A DNA stretch of 64,000 nt, from the NCBI RefSeq assembly GCF_009797935.1, contig NZ_VOLC01000004.1:192820-256819 (forward strand), in the 5' to 3' direction. Both the position numbers and the translations under genes were made by a program. Source of the stretch: Lunatibacter salilacus (lineage in GTDB: Bacteria > Bacteroidota > Bacteroidia > Cytophagales > Cyclobacteriaceae). The notes below the pieces were generated by a model that saw only the letters and a list, made by a program, of their open reading frames with translations, was not told the DNA's origin and made no database searches. Below, piece after piece: positions 21,952 to 48,077 of this stretch (positions within the stretch are counted from its first letter, which is position 1; each line of letters begins with the position of its first letter).

Positions 21952-22349
21952 GATTTAGGTTTTTTTAAAGATAAAATATCTTGGATATTATTTCAATTAA
22001 ATGGAAGATCCTTCTATCATAAGTTGGCTTCATGCAGACTGCGCAGAGAAACGAAATTTGGAATGAAGATCGTATAACAGGAATCTCTGTTTGTTTGGTA
22101 AATGTAAACATTGTTTACAATCTCTTAATAGTCGGAATGAAAAAAAGTAGTTGCATATCCTAATTCCTTTTGTGGAATATTAGTCCTCTGATAATGGAAA
22201 ATTAATTAATTACCTATAAATTGGGACGCTGATTATGTTTCACCAAAGAATCAATTAGCAGTTTATCTCGATTTGAAAATTAAAATTTGTCATTCGTTGA
22301 TTTTGTGAATAGTGTTTTTTCAAATAACCCATCAAGTAAACAAAAAACT

Positions 22350-23627
22350 ATGATTTTAACTGACCGAAGATCCTTCATTAAAGGTGCCGCCGCACTTTCG
22401 GCTTTTACCGTATTAAATCCAACTACCGTATTCGGTACCCGAGCCAATTCTGCCATACGCGTCGGAATTATCGGCTGTGGCAATAGAGGCACATCAGTGA
22501 TAACAGCCATGTCAAAGCATGCTGGCATTCAGATTGTTGCAATGGCTGACTTGTTTTTGGACAAGTTAGAGCAAGCTAAGCCTAAGTTGGATGCTTTAAA
22601 CGAAGCCAATGGATTTGCAGCTATCCCTGCTGCAAATTCATATCAAGGCTCCAAGGCATATATGAAGCTTTTGGAAAATAAGGACGTTGATGCGGTTCTC
22701 ATATCTTCTCCGGCTTATACCCATCCTGAATTTGTTGAAGCAGCCATAGCGGCAAACAAGCATTTTTATTGCGAAAAACCCGCCGCAATGGATGTTGCCG
22801 GATGCAAACGGATATCAGCAGCTGCAAAGTCGATCAAAGACTGCAGTGCTGTTTTTGGGTTTCAAATTCGCTATGCAACTCCCTATGTTGAGTTGATAAA
22901 GCGCATTCATGAGGGAGCCATAGGAGATGTTGTCAATGCCCAGCTATATTATTTTTCCTCCGGCCTTCCTGTAAATCAGACACCGGAGATGTCACATGAT
23001 GAAGTACGAATACGGAACCAATTTTTCTTCAGGGACCTTTCCGGAGGTATCTTACTTGATCAGGGGGTACATATGCTGGATGTGTGCAATTGGGCACTTC
23101 GGATCCAGCCTATCAGTGCCATCGGAATGGGGGGGTATAACGGAGGAGATGGATTCGGGGATGCCTTCAAAAATTACCAGGTTATCTATAAATACCCTCA
23201 GGATATTAGTGTCAGCTTTCATTCTACCCAGTTTGGCGGGACTTTCGGCGATGTCTGTGCGCGGTTTATCGGCAAAAAGGGCATTGCTGTTGCGACCTAC
23301 AGTGGTGGGGTTTATATCAATGGGGAAAATACCTGGGATTCAGGAGTACTAAGAGAAACTACCAGTGAAGCCAGCCGGGAACAGCAGGCCGCAGGCGTAT
23401 TTACCTCTTCCCTACATGATTCCAATGAGAATAAGGTAAAAAGCTTCATCCAGAGTATTGAAACCGGTAAATTTATAAATGAAATAGAACCTGCCGTTAA
23501 CTCAACACTTACAGCGATTCTGGGAAGACAAGCCGCCACAACACAAAAGGCGGTAAGTTGGAATGAAATGCTTTTCTCCAATGAAAGTATTGACCCCAAG
23601 TTGGATCTGGGGCAATTTGATTCCTAG
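22350..23627 (+). CDS. Tat-exported Gfo/Idh/MocA-family NAD-dependent oxidoreductase (GH109-like architecture)
   Basis: Start at ATG 22350 (MILTDRRSFIKGAAALSAF twin-arginine signal); VGIIGCGNRG Rossmann motif. Confidence 0.7.
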   Translation: MILTDRRSFIKGAAALSAFTVLNPTTVFGTRANSAIRVGIIGCGNRGTSVITAMSKHAGIQIVAMADLFLDKLEQAKPKLDALNEANGFAAIPAANSYQGSKAYMKLLENKDVDAVLISSPAYTHPEFVEAAIAANKHFYCEKPAAMDVAGCKRISAAAKSIKDCSAVFGFQIRYATPYVELIKRIHEGAIGDVVNAQLYYFSSGLPVNQTPEMSHDEVRIRNQFFFRDLSGGILLDQGVHMLDVCNWALRIQPISAIGMGGYNGGDGFGDAFKNYQVIYKYPQDISVSFHSTQFGGTFGDVCARFIGKKGIAVATYSGGVYINGENTWDSGVLRETTSEASREQQAAGVFTSSLHDSNENKVKSFIQSIETGKFINEIEPAVNSTLTAILGRQAATTQKAVSWNEMLFSNESIDPKLDLGQFDS

Positions 23628-23660: not shown

Positions 23661-25814
23661 ATGCCCCGTAAAATTTTGCTTGGGTTCATCGTTGGTTTTT
23701 TAATTTCAGCAACTTTATCTGCCCAGCAAGCCTGGGAAGAAGTGGCACCTGGAATCTGGAAGACGATCGTTGGAAATCCGGATGATTTTAATCTGTTAAC
23801 TGCCGCTGGAGTTTCCCCGAAGCTGGATGGTCTCAAGAAAATGCCCGCAGGGGTTTTTCCTTTAGACCCATCCCAAATCGTTCTCGAAGTGACGGAAAAT
23901 CAAACGCAACTTCGTTTTCCCCTACAGCGGGATGAACAGCTTTTTGGGTTTGGTTTAAATTTTAAAACTGTCCATCAACGGGGAAGGATCCTCCGACTAC
24001 ATGTCGATCATTATGGGGACGGCGATAATGGGCGAACCCATGCGCCGGTGCCTTTTTACGTGTCATCTGCAGGCTATGGGGTATTTGTCAATGCTGCACG
24101 CTATATTGATGTCTATGCAGGGACAGGATCCAGAAAGGACAGTCCAAATCCTCCCGAAGCAAGAGACCGAAATACGGATAATGCCTGGACCTCCCGGCCC
24201 TATTCGGATGCCGTGGAAATGCGCATTCCTGCCCAAGGGGCAGAAGTGTACCTATTTGCAGGCCCCACGTCTTTGGATGCTGTCCGTAGATACAATCTAT
24301 TTACCGGAGGTGGCCCTTTGCCTCCCCGGTGGGGGCTTGGATTTACCCAGCGGGTTCACAGGCTATTTACTGACGATCAAGTGCGGGAAGAAGTCAGGGA
24401 ATTTGAACAACGAGGATTTCCCCTTGATTTTGTTGGATTGGAGCCGGGATGGCAAAGTAAATCCTACCCAAATACCTTTGTTTGGGATTCGGGGAGATTT
24501 CCGGATCCGGAGGGATTTATGGCTGACATGATGGACAAGGGAATCCGGATTAATCTATGGGTCAATCCCTTTGTTTCCCCCGATTCCCCGATTTATAAAG
24601 ATATTCTTCCCCTTACCGGCTCCCATACAGTTTGGGCTGGGGTGGTTCCGGATTTTACTCTTCCCGCAGCCCAAGAGATATTTTGGAAACTATTTGAATC
24701 AGAACACATCGCCAAAGGAGTAAGTGGGTACAAAGTGGATGAGGTAGACGGATACGATCAATGGCTGTGGCCGGATGTTGCCAGATTTCCATCCGGGATT
24801 TCTGCAGAACAAATCCGGCAGACCTATGGACTACTAGTTCAAAAGCAAAGTGCAGCGCTTTTTAGAAACAAAAATCAACGTACCTATGGCTTGGTACGGG
24901 CATCTAATGGTGGTGGAACCTCTTTTCCTTATGTGATTTATAACGATTATTACAACCATCGGGATTTTATCACCGCACTGATAAACAGCGGATATGCGGG
25001 TGTTCTATGGACTCCCGAGGCAAGGGCTTCCAAAACTGCCGAAGAATGGCTTCGGCGGATGCAAACAGTGGTTTTTTCTCCTATGGCCATGATCAATGCC
25101 TGGGCAAGTGGCACCAAGCCATGGTCTTACCCGGAGGTAGAAGAGGAAGTTAAAAGTATGGCCTTGCTCCGTATGCAGATGATGCCTTACTGGTATTCTG
25201 AATTTGCCAAATACCATGCTGATGGAACACCGCCATTTCGGGGAATGAACTTGGAAGAAGGTTTTTCAAGTAGTAATCAGCAACTAACAATTGCGGACGA
25301 AGAAGCCGATTTGGAGGCAAACCCCTATGCTGAAGCCATCCGAAAGGAAGTGAAAGATCAGTATATGGCTGGCGAATATTTACTTGTTGCGCCGATGTTT
25401 GAAGGTGAAACCACCCGCAGCGTTGTATTGCCAAGTGGAAAGTGGTTTGATTTTTATACCGGAGAATTGGTAGGCGAAGGAGAGGTAATTTCGGTAACTC
25501 CGGGGTTGGAAAGGATTCCAGTGTTTGTCAAAGACGGTGGAATTATCCCGATGACTGAAGCTAGACTCCATGCCCCTGCCAAAGGAGAAAAATACAACTT
25601 GGAAATAAGACATTATGGCGAAAAGCCTGGTAATTACCTGCTCTATGACGATGATGGAGAGTCTTTTGACTATGAGAAGGGTGATTATTCCTGGAGGAAG
25701 TTGTCAGTTTCTGATCAGAGAAATGGTAAATTAACCGGGAGCGTATCAAAGGCTGAAAAGGATAAACCCGACAACCTGGATCAGATCACATGGAGATTTA
25801 TGACTAATCAATGA
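23661..25814 (+). CDS. glycoside hydrolase family 31-like alpha-glycosidase, secreted
   Basis: Signal peptide; FVWDSGRFPDPEGFMADMMDKGIRINLWVNPFV matches the GH31 FTWDxxRFPDP...G.K.V.I.DP block; putative nucleophile region GYKVDEVDG. Confidence 0.6.
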   Translation: MPRKILLGFIVGFLISATLSAQQAWEEVAPGIWKTIVGNPDDFNLLTAAGVSPKLDGLKKMPAGVFPLDPSQIVLEVTENQTQLRFPLQRDEQLFGFGLNFKTVHQRGRILRLHVDHYGDGDNGRTHAPVPFYVSSAGYGVFVNAARYIDVYAGTGSRKDSPNPPEARDRNTDNAWTSRPYSDAVEMRIPAQGAEVYLFAGPTSLDAVRRYNLFTGGGPLPPRWGLGFTQRVHRLFTDDQVREEVREFEQRGFPLDFVGLEPGWQSKSYPNTFVWDSGRFPDPEGFMADMMDKGIRINLWVNPFVSPDSPIYKDILPLTGSHTVWAGVVPDFTLPAAQEIFWKLFESEHIAKGVSGYKVDEVDGYDQWLWPDVARFPSGISAEQIRQTYGLLVQKQSAALFRNKNQRTYGLVRASNGGGTSFPYVIYNDYYNHRDFITALINSGYAGVLWTPEARASKTAEEWLRRMQTVVFSPMAMINAWASGTKPWSYPEVEEEVKSMALLRMQMMPYWYSEFAKYHADGTPPFRGMNLEEGFSSSNQQLTIADEEADLEANPYAEAIRKEVKDQYMAGEYLLVAPMFEGETTRSVVLPSGKWFDFYTGELVGEGEVISVTPGLERIPVFVKDGGIIPMTEARLHAPAKGEKYNLEIRHYGEKPGNYLLYDDDGESFDYEKGDYSWRKLSVSDQRNGKLTGSVSKAEKDKPDNLDQITWRFMTNQ

Positions 25815-26063
25815 GTTGATAGGTCTATGGGTTGATAAGTTGATGAACTCTCTTAGTCTCTCAGTCCCTAAGTCCCTCCGTCCCTCAGTCTCCAAGTAGG
25901 TTGATAGGTTGATAGGTCACAGTCCCTCCGTCCCCATCTCTCAGTCACTGCCGCCTCCCGTCTTCAAACTTCCGTCTCCAAGTAAGATGATGGGTTGATT
26001 AACTCAATAACCTAATAACCTAATAACTTAACTCCCTTAGTCTCTAAGTCCCTCCGTCTCTCA
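25815..26063. repeat. composite short tandem/direct repeat block between convergent genes
   Basis: gttgata(g/a)gt x4; agtccctccgtc(c/t)c x4; aataacct x3. The last agtccctccgtctc copy encodes the C-terminal DGGT-stop of the 1618-aa gene. Confidence 0.5.
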
Positions 26064-29000
26064 TACCATTACTCAACACCTTCTTAATCCCTTCCAGCCC
26101 TTCTACAAAAAGGGACATCTGTCCGATCACCTGAGCCATTCGATCGGAATCGCCAAGTCCGCGGATCCGGTTGTTTTTCACGAAAGTTTCCTTGATGGTT
26201 GTCCATCGATTGGATCGGGTTTCGTCCAGCAGGTTCATCATCTCGAAAAGCTTCAATAAGTTGGACTCTGCATCCGAGGTCAGGGTTTGGGATTCGTTTT
26301 GGTAATGATCTAAAACTAACTGCATAACTTCCTTATCATTCAAAATAGGGACCACTTGGCTGATTAGTTTGTTCATGTCCCGGTACGAACCCTGAAGCTT
26401 AAAGGGTGGCTCAACCCGGTAATCGTCGGCCATTGCCGCGGAGGCAATATATTGGGCATTCACTTGAAGCACCACATCCCTGACCATTATACATTTCCTA
26501 AGGACAGAAAGGCAATCCTGTATTTCCTGCGAAGATAGGTTTCCTTCCAGATTGGGATAGTTGGGATCTTCATTTTCAATAAACTGTACCAATTTGTACA
26601 AATTTTCAATTCCATATTGCGTGAGCGATTTGAGGATAGGGTTGGAGGTAAGGCCATTTTCGATCAAGCTGAGTTTAAATAGGTCTGCCCGGTTGTTAAC
26701 CATATCCCCCAAATTGTAAATATCCGCCCTGTTGGAGAGCATATCCGGAATTTGGAACTTGTCACCGCTTTCGGTGTACGGATTTCCAGCCATTACCACA
26801 CAAAAGCGCTTTCCCCGAAAGTCATAGGTTTTGGATTGTCCATTAAATACACCTTCTATTTTTCGCTGTCCATCTGCTAGTGAAATGAATTTTTGTAAAA
26901 ATTCGGGATTACAGTGCTGAATGTCATCCAGGTAGAGCATGACATTGTCACCCATTTCCAAGGCGAGGTTGAGCTTCTGAAGTTCCTGCCGGGTAGCGGC
27001 ATTACGGGCTTCAGCGGGATCCACAGAAGTGATTTCGTGACCAATGGAAGGTCCATTAATTTTCATAAAGATCAAACCGAGTCTGTCAGCCACATATTCC
27101 ATCAGGGTGGTTTTTCCATAGCCGGGAGGGGAAATCAGCAATAGCATGCCTGATCGGTCAGTGCGTTTGTCGGCGCCAAATGCCCCCATTTGTTTGGCAA
27201 AATTGGTTCCGATAAGCGGCAAATACACTTGGTTAATAAGTTTGTTACGGACAAAAGAAGTCAATACCTGAGTTTGAAATTCATGAAGCCTTAATTCGCT
27301 TTTCTTTTGTTCGATCAGTTGGTGCTTTAATGCCTGAAGCCGTAGATATTTCGGGTGTACTTCTCCTACGAATCGCCTAAGACGAGAGGTGAATTCGTGG
27401 TAGTCGAAATGGTATTTTCCTTCCCCGTCTTCTGAATGTATACCAATGGATTTGACAGATTTTATTTCTTGTTGCGAGGAAATATGCTGCACGTAGTGCG
27501 TATCCGGGCTTTCCATAATCAGGCAAGAAGCGGCTTCTTCAATTATTTCTTCCCTGACTCCTGGCCGCTTTTTAGCTGCTGATGCCTGCATCCATTGTTT
27601 GCACAGGTGCCACTCTGCCGCGGGAAAGTCAGCGAGCCCTTTTTGGGCCTCTAAAAAAGTGGATTCTGAATTTTTCTCCCTTAAGTTTTTTCGAAAATCC
27701 TCCAGAAGTTCCTTTGCTGACCTTTCCAAGATAAATCCATCCGTGGCTTGTTCTACCGCTAAATACTTTGCGGCTTCCAAGGAATCTATTCCTTCCATTA
27801 ATTTATTTTGGACGGAAAATTCCTTTATAGCCTCACTTAAACTTTGGATAAGATGTGTGTATTCTTGGGTATGCTCGAATACCTGCCGCATCAAATTGAC
27901 AAAGACAAATTGCTTTTTGAAATATGCTTTTTTGTCAACATCAACATAATGCCAGAATAATTTAGCCAAGATACGGGTCTTTGCGGGAAATTGTAACAGG
28001 CCTAAATCTTTGGTTTTTTCAATCAGGGTTTGTAAAAGCAGTAGGGCATCCTGATCGTGAACACCTTTAACATACCCCTCGCCATAGTGGTTGGTCATGT
28101 ATTCACTTATTTTCTCTACGAGATCATCTTCGGTGGGAAGATCATTGGGATTCAGCTCTTGAAATACCTTCCATGCAAGATATTCGGCCCGTTGAACATC
28201 TTTGTTTTCGGATGGGAGTTCCTGCTCCCAAACTTCCCGAAGATCATCGATGGCTGCCGCATCCATGGCTTCATAGTATGAAGTGCCAGTAAGATGGTAA
28301 TAATATTGCCTGTCCCTGATTAGAAGGGTAAGGTCCAGTTTTTGGTTATTTACGGCGAAACGAACATCCCCCATCCGAATAATGTTATTTCCATCTTCGT
28401 AGAGTTCTTTTTTATCTTTAAGTGCACGGATTGCCTCCTGCTGCAGCACTTGAAGCTGATTGAGCAAGTCTTCTGATTTTCCGGCGTCATCCAACTGCTG
28501 TAGGTTCTTGGCGGAGTCACGAACTTTGTCAATCATCAGATCTGAGGCAAAGTATCCGTTGATTTCAATTTCAGACTCGAAGGTCGCCGCCTTGGATTGA
28601 ATACCCTTTAGAATTCGCTGACCAGCCGCAAAAAGTGAATTCGTCCTCCTGTTTCGTGCTTCTGTTAGGGAAACTTTTTTGGATTCAAAAGCCGCATATA
28701 CTGCTTCTCTTTTTTCCGTGATCTTATCGATGAACTCATCGAAATCGACAAAACGGCTTTCGAGTTCTTCCAACTGTATGGAGAGTTTTGTCAGGTACTC
28801 GTCACATTTGACGGGATCATTGGCCAGGTCCAGGTAGTTGACTATAGCCTGCTCAAAGAGTGTCAACTGGGCGGAAAAATCGGCCCGAGCCTCCCGTTCC
28901 CCCAGTTGCCGCCGTTTATTGTTAAGTGCTACCCGCTTTTGGTTGAGTTGCGCAAAAATGACCGATATGTTTTCTATGATCTGAGTGCTGTGGGAGGTAT

Positions 29001-30900
29001 CTTCTACTTTTAGGTTGTTAACAATTTCTATCAACAGCTCCAACTGACGGGAAAGTTCGTCAAAGTCCTTTTCAAGATTTTTTACATCAATTACTTTAGT
29101 AAGTTTTTGGACTTCGGTTCCCAGATAGTCCATACGCTCCTGATAGTAGGAAAGTGCATTTTCCTGCAATAAAAACTGCACACAAGCATCCGCCAAATCG
29201 TCTGCTCGGCTAGCTATACTTTCTTCCAGTTTGGCCACGGCCTCCATGTCAATGTACCGGAGGCTTTTCAGCCCAATAATCTCCCCACGGAGCTTGCGTA
29301 ACTTGGAAAGCAAAGAAACATATTCCTCTAATGTGTCATAACTAGCTCTACGGGTATCAAACAAAATTTTATTCACATCAGTGGTAGCCTTTTCAAGGTT
29401 TTCCGTTGTGTTTTTTCGAATTTGAACTACCTTTTCAAACTCATCTATTGCCGACAGGGCAATTTCTTTTACCTGCTGCAAGGGCTCATGGAGACTGCCA
29501 GCCCGCTGGTTATTGAGCCAGAAGTAGCCGTCCGTAATGCTTTGGCTCTTTCGTTGGATATCCTCATACAACCCATCGTAACTGTCCTCTTTGGTAAGCA
29601 AAACAATCAATTCCTGTATTTCAGCCATGGCCCTTACAATGGGCCTATTACCTATTTTATACAGTTCATGGTTTTTGAATGCCTCATTGGGGATTAATTC
29701 CTTGGAATAAGGCGTTTGCCAGATTTGGATAAGATGGTGTTTACTCGGTGCGATTTCCGTATTGAAATAGCACAGCTCCCCATTTCCAAATAACGTGTAT
29801 CCATTGCAGAAAATCGGAGTCTTTACAGTCTGCTCAATAACGTTATAAGAAAGTATGACGAAATCATGATTCTTTTCTTCATAAAAAACAAACAAAAAAT
29901 CCTCCCCATTGGGAGATTGGATTTTCCGAAGGAATTTTACGCCTTCAATTTTCCTGTCAAATAGTTTGTATTCACCTGTCTGCAGGTAATAGCCATTCGA
30001 AAGGATAATTCCCTGATCATCGGGTAGCAGAATTCCCGCATCCTTAAGGGTATCTACGCGGATCACATTTTTGATGCGGTGGTTGAATATAAAAAAACGG
30101 TCGCTTTCCAAATAGGGACGGATCTTCAGAAGAACTAAATTTCCCAAATCACAAAAGTGGATTTCCGCATCATCCAGCGATTGATCCCTTTGGTCCACTT
30201 CTTCTTGGTAGATCCCCTGACCGTTATCTGTGTTATCTTCCACTTTGATGGTGAGGTCACCTCCCAATGTCTCTACGAAGACTTTGTCCGCAATGGAAAC
30301 GTGTGGATTCTTGCCGACTCGCTGCATATCCCGTGTGGCTTTAGTCCAAGTAAATTCATGTTGAGGGGGAAATCGTACGTCGGCAGCACTTCTGGAATCA
30401 ACATAGATTAGTTTTTCACCGTCAATAAGCCACTTAAATGCTTTGATATCAGACGGGCTGTCTGAAAGCTGAAAAACAAAGTACAGGTAATTCAGATGGA
30501 TGGTAAATCTGGAAAATTGCGTGTTCCTGTAGAATTTATACAGGTTTTGAAGTTCGTTGGCAAACTCAGAATCTGATAGGATATCGATAGGAGCATGGTG
30601 AAACTCGTGGTCTTGGAAATGATACACACTGAAGACATCGGGAATTTCCAAGGTGGACTTGAGCCCCAGCCTTACATTGTATCCTAAAAGGCAAATGTTT
30701 CCAACCGACACAATGTCCCTGGCTACGCAGTTATGGTCGGTACTGATCCGTACATTGGAAAGCAGCTTAAAATCCACAGCCCCGAAAATCTGCTGACGTT
30801 CCTTGTTCAGGGTTTGAATCCTCGTGAGAAGTTCTTGGCGTTGGTGCTGAAGCCGTTGTTGAATGATTTCATAAGTACCCCTTTCGATCGTATTATCCAT
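26044..30900 (-). CDS. 1618-aa coiled-coil protein with C-terminal MoxR/AAA_5-like AAA+ ATPase domain; function unknown
   Basis: Residues ~1-400 are beta-rich and globular; ~450-830 are a heptad-rich coiled coil. Walker A SPPGYGKTT is at 27106-27123 (checked on the DNA), Walker B MLYLDD at 26923-26937, sensor-1 VVMAGNP, and MLSNRAD (MoxR LxxRF-like). It is the last gene of the PspA/flotillin operon. Confidence 0.7.
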   Translation of the reverse strand: MDNTIERGTYEIIQQRLQHQRQELLTRIQTLNKERQQIFGAVDFKLLSNVRISTDHNCVARDIVSVGNICLLGYNVRLGLKSTLEIPDVFSVYHFQDHEFHHAPIDILSDSEFANELQNLYKFYRNTQFSRFTIHLNYLYFVFQLSDSPSDIKAFKWLIDGEKLIYVDSRSAADVRFPPQHEFTWTKATRDMQRVGKNPHVSIADKVFVETLGGDLTIKVEDNTDNGQGIYQEEVDQRDQSLDDAEIHFCDLGNLVLLKIRPYLESDRFFIFNHRIKNVIRVDTLKDAGILLPDDQGIILSNGYYLQTGEYKLFDRKIEGVKFLRKIQSPNGEDFLFVFYEEKNHDFVILSYNVIEQTVKTPIFCNGYTLFGNGELCYFNTEIAPSKHHLIQIWQTPYSKELIPNEAFKNHELYKIGNRPIVRAMAEIQELIVLLTKEDSYDGLYEDIQRKSQSITDGYFWLNNQRAGSLHEPLQQVKEIALSAIDEFEKVVQIRKNTTENLEKATTDVNKILFDTRRASYDTLEEYVSLLSKLRKLRGEIIGLKSLRYIDMEAVAKLEESIASRADDLADACVQFLLQENALSYYQERMDYLGTEVQKLTKVIDVKNLEKDFDELSRQLELLIEIVNNLKVEDTSHSTQIIENISVIFAQLNQKRVALNNKRRQLGEREARADFSAQLTLFEQAIVNYLDLANDPVKCDEYLTKLSIQLEELESRFVDFDEFIDKITEKREAVYAAFESKKVSLTEARNRRTNSLFAAGQRILKGIQSKAATFESEIEINGYFASDLMIDKVRDSAKNLQQLDDAGKSEDLLNQLQVLQQEAIRALKDKKELYEDGNNIIRMGDVRFAVNNQKLDLTLLIRDRQYYYHLTGTSYYEAMDAAAIDDLREVWEQELPSENKDVQRAEYLAWKVFQELNPNDLPTEDDLVEKISEYMTNHYGEGYVKGVHDQDALLLLQTLIEKTKDLGLLQFPAKTRILAKLFWHYVDVDKKAYFKKQFVFVNLMRQVFEHTQEYTHLIQSLSEAIKEFSVQNKLMEGIDSLEAAKYLAVEQATDGFILERSAKELLEDFRKNLREKNSESTFLEAQKGLADFPAAEWHLCKQWMQASAAKKRPGVREEIIEEAASCLIMESPDTHYVQHISSQQEIKSVKSIGIHSEDGEGKYHFDYHEFTSRLRRFVGEVHPKYLRLQALKHQLIEQKKSELRLHEFQTQVLTSFVRNKLINQVYLPLIGTNFAKQMGAFGADKRTDRSGMLLLISPPGYGKTTLMEYVADRLGLIFMKINGPSIGHEITSVDPAEARNAATRQELQKLNLALEMGDNVMLYLDDIQHCNPEFLQKFISLADGQRKIEGVFNGQSKTYDFRGKRFCVVMAGNPYTESGDKFQIPDMLSNRADIYNLGDMVNNRADLFKLSLIENGLTSNPILKSLTQYGIENLYKLVQFIENEDPNYPNLEGNLSSQEIQDCLSVLRKCIMVRDVVLQVNAQYIASAAMADDYRVEPPFKLQGSYRDMNKLISQVVPILNDKEVMQLVLDHYQNESQTLTSDAESNLLKLFEMMNLLDETRSNRWTTIKETFVKNNRIRGLGDSDRMAQVIGQMSLFVEGLEGIKKVLSNGMRDGGT

Positions 30901-30985: not shown

Positions 30986-33016
30986 TTAGGACAATTTCCT
31001 GTTTTCTATTCCCATGGATTTGGCCATATCCATCAACCCTGCCAAAAAACCTCGGTCCTCCTCCGAAGCGGTTATTTGGAGCTGACCAATCAATGCGGCA
31101 ATGGATAGATTTTTGACATCAGAGGTGGTGATGCCATACTTATCTGCAACTCGTTTGACCTTTGCAATAAGGTCGCTATTTTCTCCAGATTCTCCATTGC
31201 CATTACTGAGCAGTGCTCCTTTAAACTGGCTAATAGTATTGGAATTCTCTACCAATTTATCGATTCCCTTTCCATTTGAAACCTGACGAATCACATTTTC
31301 AAAGAAGGTATTATCACCACCCACAATATCGATTTTCGCTGATTTGAAGGCTTCTGCCAATACCTTGGCCTGAGCGTCGGCGATGTCTTTTTGTATTCCA
31401 ATTTGGGCTAATTCCACTTCTTTTTCCTTTTGCAAATGAAGACGGAATTCCTCGTGTTCTTTGCCCGCATCATTTAGCTGCTTCATGGCAGTTGCCTTTT
31501 CCTGAATTCCCTTGGCCTCCGCAACGGCTTTTTCTTGAATGACCTCTGCCTCTGCCAAGCCTTCCTTTCGTTTGGCCTCTGCTATTCGTTCAATCACAAC
31601 AGCATCAACTGTGCCTTGTCTTTCGAGGGCATCTGCTTTCGCATGCATCACTTGCGCCTCCGAAAGCCCTATGGCAGCCTCTTCCTTGGCTATAGCTTCA
31701 GCTATGATTTTCCGAGCTTCGGCATCTTTATCAGCCGCATCTTTTCGTGCTCCAGCTTCAATGATGATTTTTTGAGCTTCAAATTTGGCAGATTTCTCCT
31801 TGGCTTCTGCGGATTTGACCTCTTCGATCAGGTTCACCTCCGCAGCTTTGGAAGCGATTATCAAAGCCACTTCTTTTTGTCTTCCCGCCTCTTTTAAGGC
31901 TTCTACATCTTTTATCTTTTCTTTTTCCTCGACCACGGTTTTTTCCATGGCTACCCGTTCCCTAATGGCATCCTGGATGTTTTTCTTCTCCAATTCTACC
32001 GCTTTCTCTTTTTCAATTTGTGCAAGTTCTACTACCCGCTCTCTTTCAGTGGCCTCGATGTCCCTATCCTTCTGTACCCGCTCGGTTTCCACCGCTTCTG
32101 CGCGCTCTTTATTCTTGAGTGCGATAATAACCTGCCGCTGCTTATTCTCCTCCTGTATCTGTAGCTGCTCTTCCGTGCGTATCCTAACTTCCTCTGATTT
32201 CAGTCGCTCCAAAGAAGAAACCTTGTCTATTTCAGCCTGCTCTCGTGCTTTTATGGTTTCTATCTCACGACGTTGAGACTCTTCTTTCTCTTTGAGTTGC
32301 TTCTCCAGTTCCAGAATGGCTTCCCGGGCTTCGACATCCTGTTTCTTTATAATCTTTTCTTCATCCCTGCGGATTAGATTGGCCTTGATGTTTTGGGCTG
32401 CGGTAAGTTCAGTGATTTTTTTGATGCCTTCTGCATCCAGAATATTATTTGAATCCAAGTTTTCTACCTTGGTTTGCTCCAGGTAATCAATGGCACAATC
32501 ATCCAGCACGTACCCATTTAAGTCAGTTCCGATAATGTCAATGATTTCATTCCTGAATTCCCTTCGGGCTTCATAGAGTTCGATAAATTCAAATTTTTTC
32601 CCAACGGTTTTGAGTGCTTCAGAGAATTTGGCCTCAAACAAGCTTTCCAAGGTTTCATGGTCTGATGCACGGGCACAACCTATGGTTTGGGCTACATTGA
32701 TGATATCCTGTACGGATTTGTTTACCCGTACAAAGAAGGCTACCTTGATGTCCGCCCGCATATTGTCCTTGCAGATCAGACCGTCTTTGGCCATTCTGGA
32801 AATATCCAGCTTCTTAACTGAAATATCCATGATTTCCTGTTTGTGAAGAATAGGGACTACAAGTCCCGCATTAAAAAAGATCTTTACTCCGCCTTGCCCG
32901 GTCCGCACCAGAACCCGGCCTTGGCTCACTTTTTTGTACATGGAGATGAGCCACATGAGCAGCCCTAGCAGCACAATCATTCCGAATATGGCCACTGTGT
33001 AAAAAGATTCCGTCAT
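30986..33016 (-). CDS. flotillin-like SPFH/band-7 protein (YqiK type)
   Basis: N-terminal TM helix; SPFH domain; ~330-aa E/K/A-rich coiled coil (AEAKEK.., EKEKAVELEK..); YqiJ-like gene 12 bp upstream. Confidence 0.85.
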   Translation of the reverse strand: MTESFYTVAIFGMIVLLGLLMWLISMYKKVSQGRVLVRTGQGGVKIFFNAGLVVPILHKQEIMDISVKKLDISRMAKDGLICKDNMRADIKVAFFVRVNKSVQDIINVAQTIGCARASDHETLESLFEAKFSEALKTVGKKFEFIELYEARREFRNEIIDIIGTDLNGYVLDDCAIDYLEQTKVENLDSNNILDAEGIKKITELTAAQNIKANLIRRDEEKIIKKQDVEAREAILELEKQLKEKEESQRREIETIKAREQAEIDKVSSLERLKSEEVRIRTEEQLQIQEENKQRQVIIALKNKERAEAVETERVQKDRDIEATERERVVELAQIEKEKAVELEKKNIQDAIRERVAMEKTVVEEKEKIKDVEALKEAGRQKEVALIIASKAAEVNLIEEVKSAEAKEKSAKFEAQKIIIEAGARKDAADKDAEARKIIAEAIAKEEAAIGLSEAQVMHAKADALERQGTVDAVVIERIAEAKRKEGLAEAEVIQEKAVAEAKGIQEKATAMKQLNDAGKEHEEFRLHLQKEKEVELAQIGIQKDIADAQAKVLAEAFKSAKIDIVGGDNTFFENVIRQVSNGKGIDKLVENSNTISQFKGALLSNGNGESGENSDLIAKVKRVADKYGITTSDVKNLSIAALIGQLQITASEEDRGFLAGLMDMAKSMGIENRKLS

Positions 33017-47594: not shown

Positions 47595-48077
47595 ATGGAA
47601 TTCCTATTTGTTTATGGCACCCTTCTCACTGATGTAAAGCATCCTAAGGGAGAAATGCTAAGAGCCTTAGCAAGCTTTATAGGAAAAGGCCAGATACCCG
47701 GAACTCTATATGATTTAGGAGAATACCCCGCTTTGGTAGCGTGTAATGAGACTAGTTCTTCGGTTCTGGGAGAAGTATATGACTTAAGCAGTTGTCCAAA
47801 TCTTTGGGCCGAACTGGATGAATACGAAGGAATCAATGACTCCGATACTCCCGAATATACCCGGGAAAAAGTATTAGTCACAACAGCAGATGCTACCCTA
47901 ACTTGCTGGACCTATATCTACCAAGGTATTGTCCAAAATCTTGTACCGATTGAGGGCGGGGATTATTTAAGCTATTTTAAAGAAAGGGAGGACCACAGAG
48001 GAGACGGAGAGACTAAGGGACTCAGAGAACATAGAGATCACGGAGAAGGCAAAGATGATATAGAGAAAAGTTTATAG
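47595..48077 (+). CDS. gamma-glutamylcyclotransferase-like (AIG2/GGCT family) protein with charged C-terminal tail
   Basis: LFVYGTLL...GTLYDLGEYPALV motif. Confidence 0.7.
   Translation: MEFLFVYGTLLTDVKHPKGEMLRALASFIGKGQIPGTLYDLGEYPALVACNETSSSVLGEVYDLSSCPNLWAELDEYEGINDSDTPEYTREKVLVTTADATLTCWTYIYQGIVQNLVPIEGGDYLSYFKEREDHRGDGETKGLREHRDHGEGKDDIEKSL

Follow-up and report, generated by a model that had tools for sequence, protein, structure and literature searches.

An AAA+ ATPase of the DUF3686 family with a conserved Asp-Asp Walker B motif and genomic linkage to flotillin in Lunatibacter salilacus and other bacteria

Introduction

What is a 1618-residue AAA+ ATPase doing at the end of an operon that also encodes a flotillin and a PspA protein? 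The question is raised by a 64,000-nt stretch of Lunatibacter salilacus DNA (assembly GCF_009797935.1, contig NZ_VOLC01000004.1, positions 192,820 to 256,819; hereafter the window), in which a preliminary description made from the letters alone had drawn attention to a long open reading frame (ORF) for an ATPase with a non-canonical Walker B motif. We find that its gene, of the DUF3686 family, follows a flotillin gene in most genomes sampled and that its Asp-Asp (DD) Walker B motif is nearly constant. On balance, we think it somewhat probable that DUF3686 ATPases function with the flotillin module, as the cytoplasmic, ATP-using partner of a flotillin/NfeD scaffold.

Membrane organization and repair depend centrally on flotillin/SPFH scaffolds and on PspA, the bacterial ESCRT-III. 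To our knowledge, no bacterial enzyme is known to use ATP for assembling or recycling flotillin/SPFH or PspA. According to a 2025 review, bacteria appear to lack a Vps4-like ATPase (PMC7619361). Being widespread, almost constantly linked to flotillin and conserved at its nucleotide site, the DUF3686 family is an obvious candidate for an ATP-driven scaffold enzyme, and its invariant DD motif and near-obligate association with a flotillin gene most deserve bench work. The label "DNA repair ATPase" has meanwhile spread over thousands of proteins.

Results

Linkage of the ATPase gene to flotillin

Gene context was compared in 80 genomes from a species-representative collection. In 68 of them, the gene immediately preceding the ATPase gene, in the same orientation, encoded a flotillin, and nine of the twelve loci without one were contigs with less than 1.6 kb of upstream sequence. 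A YqiJ-like gene was present at 57-60 of the 80 loci, PspA at 30 and CesT at 28, the latter two mainly in Bacteroidota, and a divergent XRE regulator accompanied the CesT-PspA form of the operon in about 28-30 genomes. From these frequencies, the conserved core is NfeD-like/flotillin/ATPase, and PspA and CesT are a lineage-specific addition. No conserved gene followed the ATPase gene in the 80 loci. The linkage extends across phyla: in RefSeq, the Streptomyces gene and that of plasmid pQBR103 of Pseudomonas fluorescens, both annotated "DNA repair ATPase", immediately follow a gene for a "flotillin family protein" or "SPFH domain-containing protein". A search with the N-terminal domain returned 671 clusters (50% identity) from many phyla at E<=1e-3, of which 224 reached E<=1e-30. 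The window protein is 70-73% identical to proteins of Cyclobacteriaceae and Marivirga and 94% identical to a metagenomic protein.

The window itself carries the five-gene form (Table 1), with intergenic gaps of 16, 84, 12 and 85 nt. The 676-aa and 207-aa proteins had no Pfam match on their own and were identified through profiles of their homologues. The 676-aa family profile matched Escherichia coli YqiK (hhalign probability 100%, E=5.6e-42); its homologues match Band_7, and a QmcA match was also found. The 207-aa family profile matched E. coli YqiJ (probability 95.7%, E=9.6e-9), with 9 of 21 homologues matching YqiJ_N and 2 matching NfeD.

Two distant loci and three features of the window operon deserve mention in their own right. 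On pQBR103 (425 kb, P. fluorescens SBW25; 84437-97641), a ten-gene string joins both PspA operon classes in the order YjfI, PspA, rhomboid, DUF2491, DUF350, DUF1190, glutathionylspermidine-synthase-like, hypothetical, SPFH and "DNA repair ATPase". In the Vibrio chagasii locus (L082, 3000-22000), an NfeD-like/SPFH-like/ATPase triad has an RNA-ligase/KTI12-like kinase/R2K ATP-grasp cluster on one side and hipBA, telA, NUDIX and NAD-salvage genes on the other, a setting that resembles a stress or defence island. In the window, the divergent regulator was matched only in its helix-turn-helix (HTH; residues ~10-80), leaving the C-terminal ~140 residues without assignment. A candidate attenuator hairpin in the 85-nt flotillin-ATPase gap was rejected, since its stability does not exceed that of shuffled sequence (z=-0.92). 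Opposite the Glu/Lys/Ala-rich coiled-coil part of the flotillin gene, several long antisense ORFs (31101-32846, plus strand) look conserved, with 203 such ORFs in 66 loci, but the most likely reading is that biased, repetitive coding sequence gives rise to them incidentally and that they are not genes.

Table 1. Coordinates of the ATPase gene, its motifs and domains, and the neighboring features in the window
Feature	Residues	Window position	Strand	Remarks
DUF3686-family AAA+ ATPase gene	1-1618	26044-30900	-	ATG start, 1618 aa; last gene of operon
N-terminal long helix	4-39	30784-30891	-	AlphaFold2 (AF2) model; heptad-like pattern
Pfam DUF3686 (PF12458)	23-460	29521-30834	-	E=1.1e-183
Beta-propeller (predicted)	~45-395	29716-30768	-	~27 strands; AF2 model, Foldseek
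All-helical region (predicted)	412-833	28402-29667	-	11 helices of 10-58 residues; AF2 model, heptad scan
Pfam DUF7902	581-665	28906-29160	-	Inside all-helical region
Middle region	834-1209	27274-28401	-	AF2 model, conservation profile
AAA+ alpha/beta core	~1210-1400	26701-27273	-	Pfam, AF2 model, fold comparison
Walker A ISPPGYGKTT	1256-1265	27106-27135	-	GYGKTT = 1260-1265, 27106-27123
Walker B LYLDDIQH	1322-1329	26914-26937	-	LYLDD = 1322-1326, 26923-26937
Strand beta4 and sensor 1 VVMAGNP	1368-1374	26779-26799	-	N1373 invariant
MLSNRAD	1387-1393	26722-26742	-	R1391 invariant
EPPFKLQGSYRxMNK	1497-1511	26368-26412	-	Near-invariant; in C-terminal domain
Lid and C-terminal helical domain (~220 aa)	1401-1618	26047-26700	-	AF2 model, conservation
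YqiK-type flotillin (SPFH)	676 aa	30986-33016	-	One N-terminal transmembrane (TM) segment, long coiled coil; directly upstream of ATPase gene
YqiJ/YuaF (NfeD-like) multi-TM protein	207 aa	33029-33652	-	hhalign, homologue profiles
PspA/IM30 (bacterial ESCRT-III)	231 aa	33737-34432	-	Pfam PF04012, E=3e-36
CesT/Tir-like chaperone	129 aa	34449-34838	-	Pfam CesT_Tir_1, E=2.9e-51; first operon gene
XRE-type HTH regulator	223 aa	34955-35626	+	Divergent from operon; Pfam
Period-8 tandem repeats, AGTCyCTC-like		25838-26066		Convergent intergenic region; encode last six ATPase codons and stop
GH31 glycoside hydrolase gene		23661-25814	+	Flanks operon 3' end
Tat-signal GFO/IDH/MocA oxidoreductase gene		22287-23627	+	Beyond GH31 gene, at operon 3' side

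The nucleotide site and its Asp-Asp Walker B motif

The reading frame and the four motifs named in the preliminary description (GYGKTT, LYLDD, VVMAGNP and MLSNRAD) were all recovered where it had placed them. Walker A matches the GxxGxGK[ST] consensus with Ser replacing the first Gly; SPPGYGKTT is unchanged in 121 of 121 Bacteroidota homologues and is kept in 63 of 64 distant representatives, save for two with a T1265S substitution. Walker B reads hhhhDD against the usual hhhhDE, so that the first Asp is canonical and the position of the catalytic Glu is occupied by Asp. The description had pointed to conservation among homologues as a check on this residue, and conservation proved to be near-universal: DDIQH was found in 121/121 Bacteroidota homologues, and DD in 120/120 Pseudomonadota homologues, at all 80 genome loci, in Vibrio, Streptomyces and a Pseudomonas plasmid, and in 63 of 64 full-length representatives of 50%-identity clusters. 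As these representatives were retrieved by the N-terminal domain alone, the sample is unbiased by the Walker B motif. Conservation throughout the family argues for the DD pair as a family hallmark and a selected property, not a decayed or inactivated site. The sole full-length representative lacking ATPase motifs (P0175, 1541 aa) has a poorly alignable, Arg/Gly/Pro-rich C-terminal region and looks like a frameshifted gene call instead of a true variant.

Other positions of the presumed nucleotide site are likewise constant. N1373 closes the predicted beta4 strand, R1391 is a candidate arginine finger by its position in the MoxR/AAA_5 pattern, and R1507 in EPPFKLQGSYRxMNK is a candidate sensor 2. 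The Walker B motif of E. coli DnaA, LLIDDIQF, has the same DDIQ form, although clade and domain context differ and any resemblance outside the Walker motifs falls short of significance (E=1.0). DnaA is a weak, slow ATPase that is externally stimulated and regulated, and it offers a precedent for a functional site of the DD type. Slow or regulated hydrolysis, which the preliminary description had raised as a possible meaning of the DD site, is plausible by analogy.

Domain architecture of the ATPase

The structure was predicted with AF2 as two overlapping halves, residues 1-870 (mean predicted local distance difference test score, pLDDT, 84) and 841-1618 (mean pLDDT 78), from an alignment of 55 homologues. 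A Pfam scan found DUF3686, DUF7902 and AAA/AAA_5. The DUF3686 hidden Markov model match scored 611.3 bits against a cut-off of 25 and covered profile positions 1-448 of 448; the AAA and AAA_5 matches at residues 1253-1376 are weak yet above threshold. The strand region matches seven-bladed propellers in Foldseek (the WD40 domain of DCAF1, prolyl oligopeptidase and TolB), and the model of the C-terminal half contains both the AAA+ alpha/beta fold and a helical lid. The preliminary description had outlined an N-terminal beta-rich domain, a coiled coil of ~380 residues and a C-terminal AAA+ core. The first and last of these stand, as does the claim of a single ATPase module near the C-terminus. 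The coiled coil does not stand as drawn: residues 412-833 are modeled as helical or coiled-coil-like but segmented, with no single continuous 380-residue rod, the heptad scan being crude and indicative only. The outline also passed over ~375 residues on the N-terminal side of the core and ~220 on its C-terminal side. The former are the middle region. In the model it opens with a small beta unit (834-878), followed by a helical domain of poor conservation and some strands, and closes with a long helix that connects to the ATPase; conservation is lowest here of all parts of the protein (0.14-0.25). A second, degenerate AAA+ domain in residues 880-1200 was rejected, as this segment is predicted to be mostly helical with few strands and no alpha/beta core. 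In all, the first interpretation is supported as essentially correct.

No hydrophobic or TM segment was detected in the hydrophobicity of the protein sequence, and the ATPase is predicted to be soluble and cytoplasmic. It has the full DUF3686-family architecture of propeller, helical region with DUF7902, and C-terminal AAA+ with SPPGYGKTT, DDIQH and GNPYTE..PDML.NR; all listed homologues carry the same Pfam set.

Placement among AAA+ proteins

The fold of the core is nearest to MoxR-type NorQ and CbbQ, and its NP...G...IP..L.NR pattern is MoxR/AAA_5-like. A short hairpin is predicted before strand 4 (residues 1350-1357, pLDDT 55-64). Between strand 2 and helix 2, the C-terminal half model has only a conserved loop and no hairpin, in which it differs from the MoxR family. 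A further difference is that the alpha0-Walker A-beta2 segment, taken alone, resembles the classical AAA proteins Rix7 and p97. Searches of PDB sequences with the single protein and with the family profile returned only P-loop-region matches to classical AAA proteins and no solved relative. Compared with MoxR AAA+ proteins (NorQ, CbbQ, RavA) and the AAA_5 modules of midasin and dynein, the window ATPase is about five times larger, has DD in place of DE and lacks a VWA partner: no VWA match was found in any operon protein, and no such conserved neighbor in the 80 loci.

The ATPase departs from the classical AAA clade (Vps4, p97, katanin) in its single conserved Arg in an NR context and its predicted hairpin, where that clade has two arginines in the second region of homology and no hairpin. 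No match was found in the ATPase to an MIT domain of the Vps4 type; its N-terminus is the predicted propeller instead. Kinship with SMC, Rad50 or RecN, which the preliminary description had also discounted, was rejected too: both Walker motifs lie at most 70 residues apart near the C-terminus with no split head, and Pfam, NCBIfam and PDB gave no matches to these families.

Known relatives of the operon

DUF3686 is an experimentally uncharacterized family. Our literature searches found no paper naming DUF3686 or PF12458, none that joins "DNA repair ATPase" with flotillin, and no biochemical study of a DUF3686 ATPase. Ravi et al. 2024 (PMC11237479) described computationally a CesT/Tir-PspA-YqiJ/YuaF-Band-7/flotillin operon with a "beta-propeller + coiled-coil + AAA-ATPase", exemplified by Dokdonia donghaensis (Bacteroidota) with the same divergent cHTH gene, labeled "cHTH+Protease", and proposed ATP-dependent membrane remodeling. 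Judged by their description of that operon, the window locus has the same domain order, the same five genes and the same divergent cHTH regulator, and differs in nothing essential, so that the window ATPase is a typical member of a family already described. The invariant DD motif and the MoxR-like core fold do not figure in that operon description (PMC11237479). Neither Pfam nor PDB sequence searches detected in the window regulator the protease domain that its label ascribes to the divergent gene.

A homologue in Pseudomonas aeruginosa (1746 aa, 39.7% identity over 1631 aligned residues) shares SPPGYGKTT, DDIQH and GNPYTE..IPDML.NRAD exactly. Its gene is flanked by an SPFH gene and a PLD-family gene, and farther downstream come yaeQ, recJ and a gene for an M4 peptidase, which we take to be lasB. 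This neighborhood identifies it as PA3728 (PA14_16190), bacE of the bacABCDEF "biofilm-associated cluster". The cluster is collinear with the window operon: CesT-like, PspA, short NfeD, SPFH (PaFlo3) and ATPase (PMC10948618, PMC13086221). It differs in its additional PLD-family gene (bacF), in a CesT-like protein that is DUF2170 and not CesT_Tir_1, and in a proposed sigma-54 binding site in its promoter region where the window has the divergent XRE gene. The six genes are co-transcribed, and in a bacA mutant their proteins are 6-13-fold more abundant (PMC10948618). PA3728 is also recurrently mutated among cystic-fibrosis isolates (PMC8190622).

The operon can be set beside other membrane-associated systems. 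HflK/C-FtsH, QmcA-YbbJ, YqiJ-YqiK and YuaF-FloT likewise encode an SPFH protein together with an NfeD-type partner. The window operon adds an AAA+ enzyme which, compared with these assemblies, has neither protease domain nor membrane anchor; no such ATPase gene adjoins yqiJK in E. coli. Vps4/CdvC resembles the window ATPase in being an AAA+ protein paired with the ESCRT-III superfamily, here the co-encoded PspA, and we propose a functional analogy.

Discussion

A putative ATP-using partner of the flotillin scaffold

Because the ATPase gene almost always follows a flotillin gene, the enzyme most likely powers remodeling of the scaffold. The YqiK-type flotillin and the NfeD-like YqiJ would form a membrane-scaffold module with the ATPase as its energy-using partner, and in the L. 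salilacus genome this module would have merged with the CesT-like chaperone and PspA into one envelope-stress operon beside an XRE-type regulator. The ATPase may oligomerize via its AAA+ core as a MoxR-like ring. Its N-terminal arm of ~1200 residues, propeller plus helical spacer, could dock on the cytoplasmic coiled-coil assembly of flotillin, on PspA polymers or on both. ATP binding and slow, partner-triggered hydrolysis at the DD site would then drive assembly, opening or disassembly of flotillin/PspA oligomers. Vps4 is an AAA+ ATPase that disassembles and recycles ESCRT-III polymers, and the proposed remodeling would proceed in a similar manner. More tentatively, and with less confidence than in the partnership itself, we suggest that DUF3686 ATPases might be dedicated remodelers that open and recycle SPFH cages, and PspA/ESCRT-III polymers where these are co-encoded, as a non-homologous counterpart of Vps4 in which the DD pair tunes hydrolysis to be slow and partner-triggered.

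Several points weigh against this partnership. The interaction with partners and the ATPase activity are predictions. With PspA in the operon in just 30 of 80 genomes, PspA cannot be the universal substrate, and three loci (L039, L056, L059) lack a detectable flotillin or NfeD-like gene although their upstream flanks exceed 7 kb. Known MoxR ATPases act with VWA-domain partners, and the operon has none. Assignment of the core to an AAA+ clade is not clean, given its Rix7/p97-like Walker A half. The DD motif could mean very low turnover, which would suit a switch more than a processive unfoldase. In addition, a P. aeruginosa mutant in the flotillin gene paFlo3 shows only a ~20% biofilm defect (PMC13086221).

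Alternative functions

The DD motif also underlies the alternative that survives best, which we nevertheless consider unlikely: that the protein is an ATP-gated structural tether or switch and not a motor, with very slow hydrolysis and with ATP binding mainly controlling how a scaffold with long arms oligomerizes and so connects flotillin assemblies with other factors. DnaA and ORC use ATP as an assembly switch in this way. The invariance of the DD pair, the matching motif and weak, externally stimulated activity of DnaA, and the long propeller-plus-helical arm, which fits a scaffold, would agree with such a role. Against it, neither sensor 1 nor the candidate arginine finger nor the candidate sensor 2 varies, a sign that hydrolysis matters; the likeness to DnaA ends with the motif; and the fold is nearest to active MoxR remodelers.

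It is more doubtful still that the flotillin/PspA/ATPase module is an anti-phage or conflict system that detects infection and answers it with a membrane-directed response. All phage-infected P. aeruginosa samples show induction of PA3728-PA3732 (PMC12041424), the operon there ends in a PLD-family gene, the Vibrio locus adjoins hipBA, RNA-repair-like and NAD-salvage genes, and thirteen plasmid records carry a homologue. However, phage induction is classical for Psp envelope-stress genes, and PADLOC defence models gave no meaningful match to the five operon proteins. The order of the triad is constant over many phyla with no variable effector or conserved downstream gene in the 80 loci, and the P. 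aeruginosa homologue belongs to a 90%-identity cluster of 3222 sequences, a size that points to broad conservation within the species.

We regard as improbable a MoxR-type maturation chaperone for a client unrelated to flotillin, for example in cofactor insertion or complex assembly, with the linkage reflecting co-regulation only. The nearness of the core to NorQ and CbbQ and its MoxR/AAA_5-like motif pattern would fit. But the operon has no VWA/MIDAS partner, no other nearby gene is conserved, MoxR proteins of ~300 aa have nothing that corresponds to the 1200-aa N-terminal arm or the 220-aa C-terminal domain, and the flotillin linkage persists in distant phyla.

A role in DNA repair is very improbable, as it is favored only by the database names (Pfam description "ATPase involved in DNA repair", NCBI product "DNA repair ATPase") and by recJ three genes downstream in P. 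aeruginosa, against which stand a protein with no match to DNA-binding, nuclease or SMC/Rad50-type domains, conserved neighbors that are membrane proteins and no repair genes, and the silence of the literature searched. Neither the domain content nor the gene context examined supports the name, which is probably a misnomer derived from coiled-coil likeness to SbcC/SMC-type "ATPase involved in DNA repair" groups.

The 3' end of the gene and its flanks

The observation that short repeats encode the 3' end of the ATPase gene, including its stop codon, was confirmed. The period-8 array occupies the 229-nt gap to the convergent GH31 gene and runs into the coding sequence. The resulting C-terminal tail, MRDGGT, is not kept even in the 94%-identical homologue, so the repeat-encoded end is trivial C-terminal variation. 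A pattern scan downstream of the ATPase gene gave no intrinsic terminator or sigma-70 promoter. The GH31 and GFO/IDH/MocA genes were found beside the ATPase gene in none of the 80 genomes and bear no relation to the operon. Nearly all of 25814-26066 consists of period-8 repeats of three unit types, GGTTGATA, AGTCyCTC and TAACCTAA; blocks of the first and third are partly complementary (21-nt arms, 76%). An exact 14-mer of the repeat at the 3' end of the ATPase gene is present only once, and the AGTCyCTC unit was found again at 48001-48022 on the minus strand.

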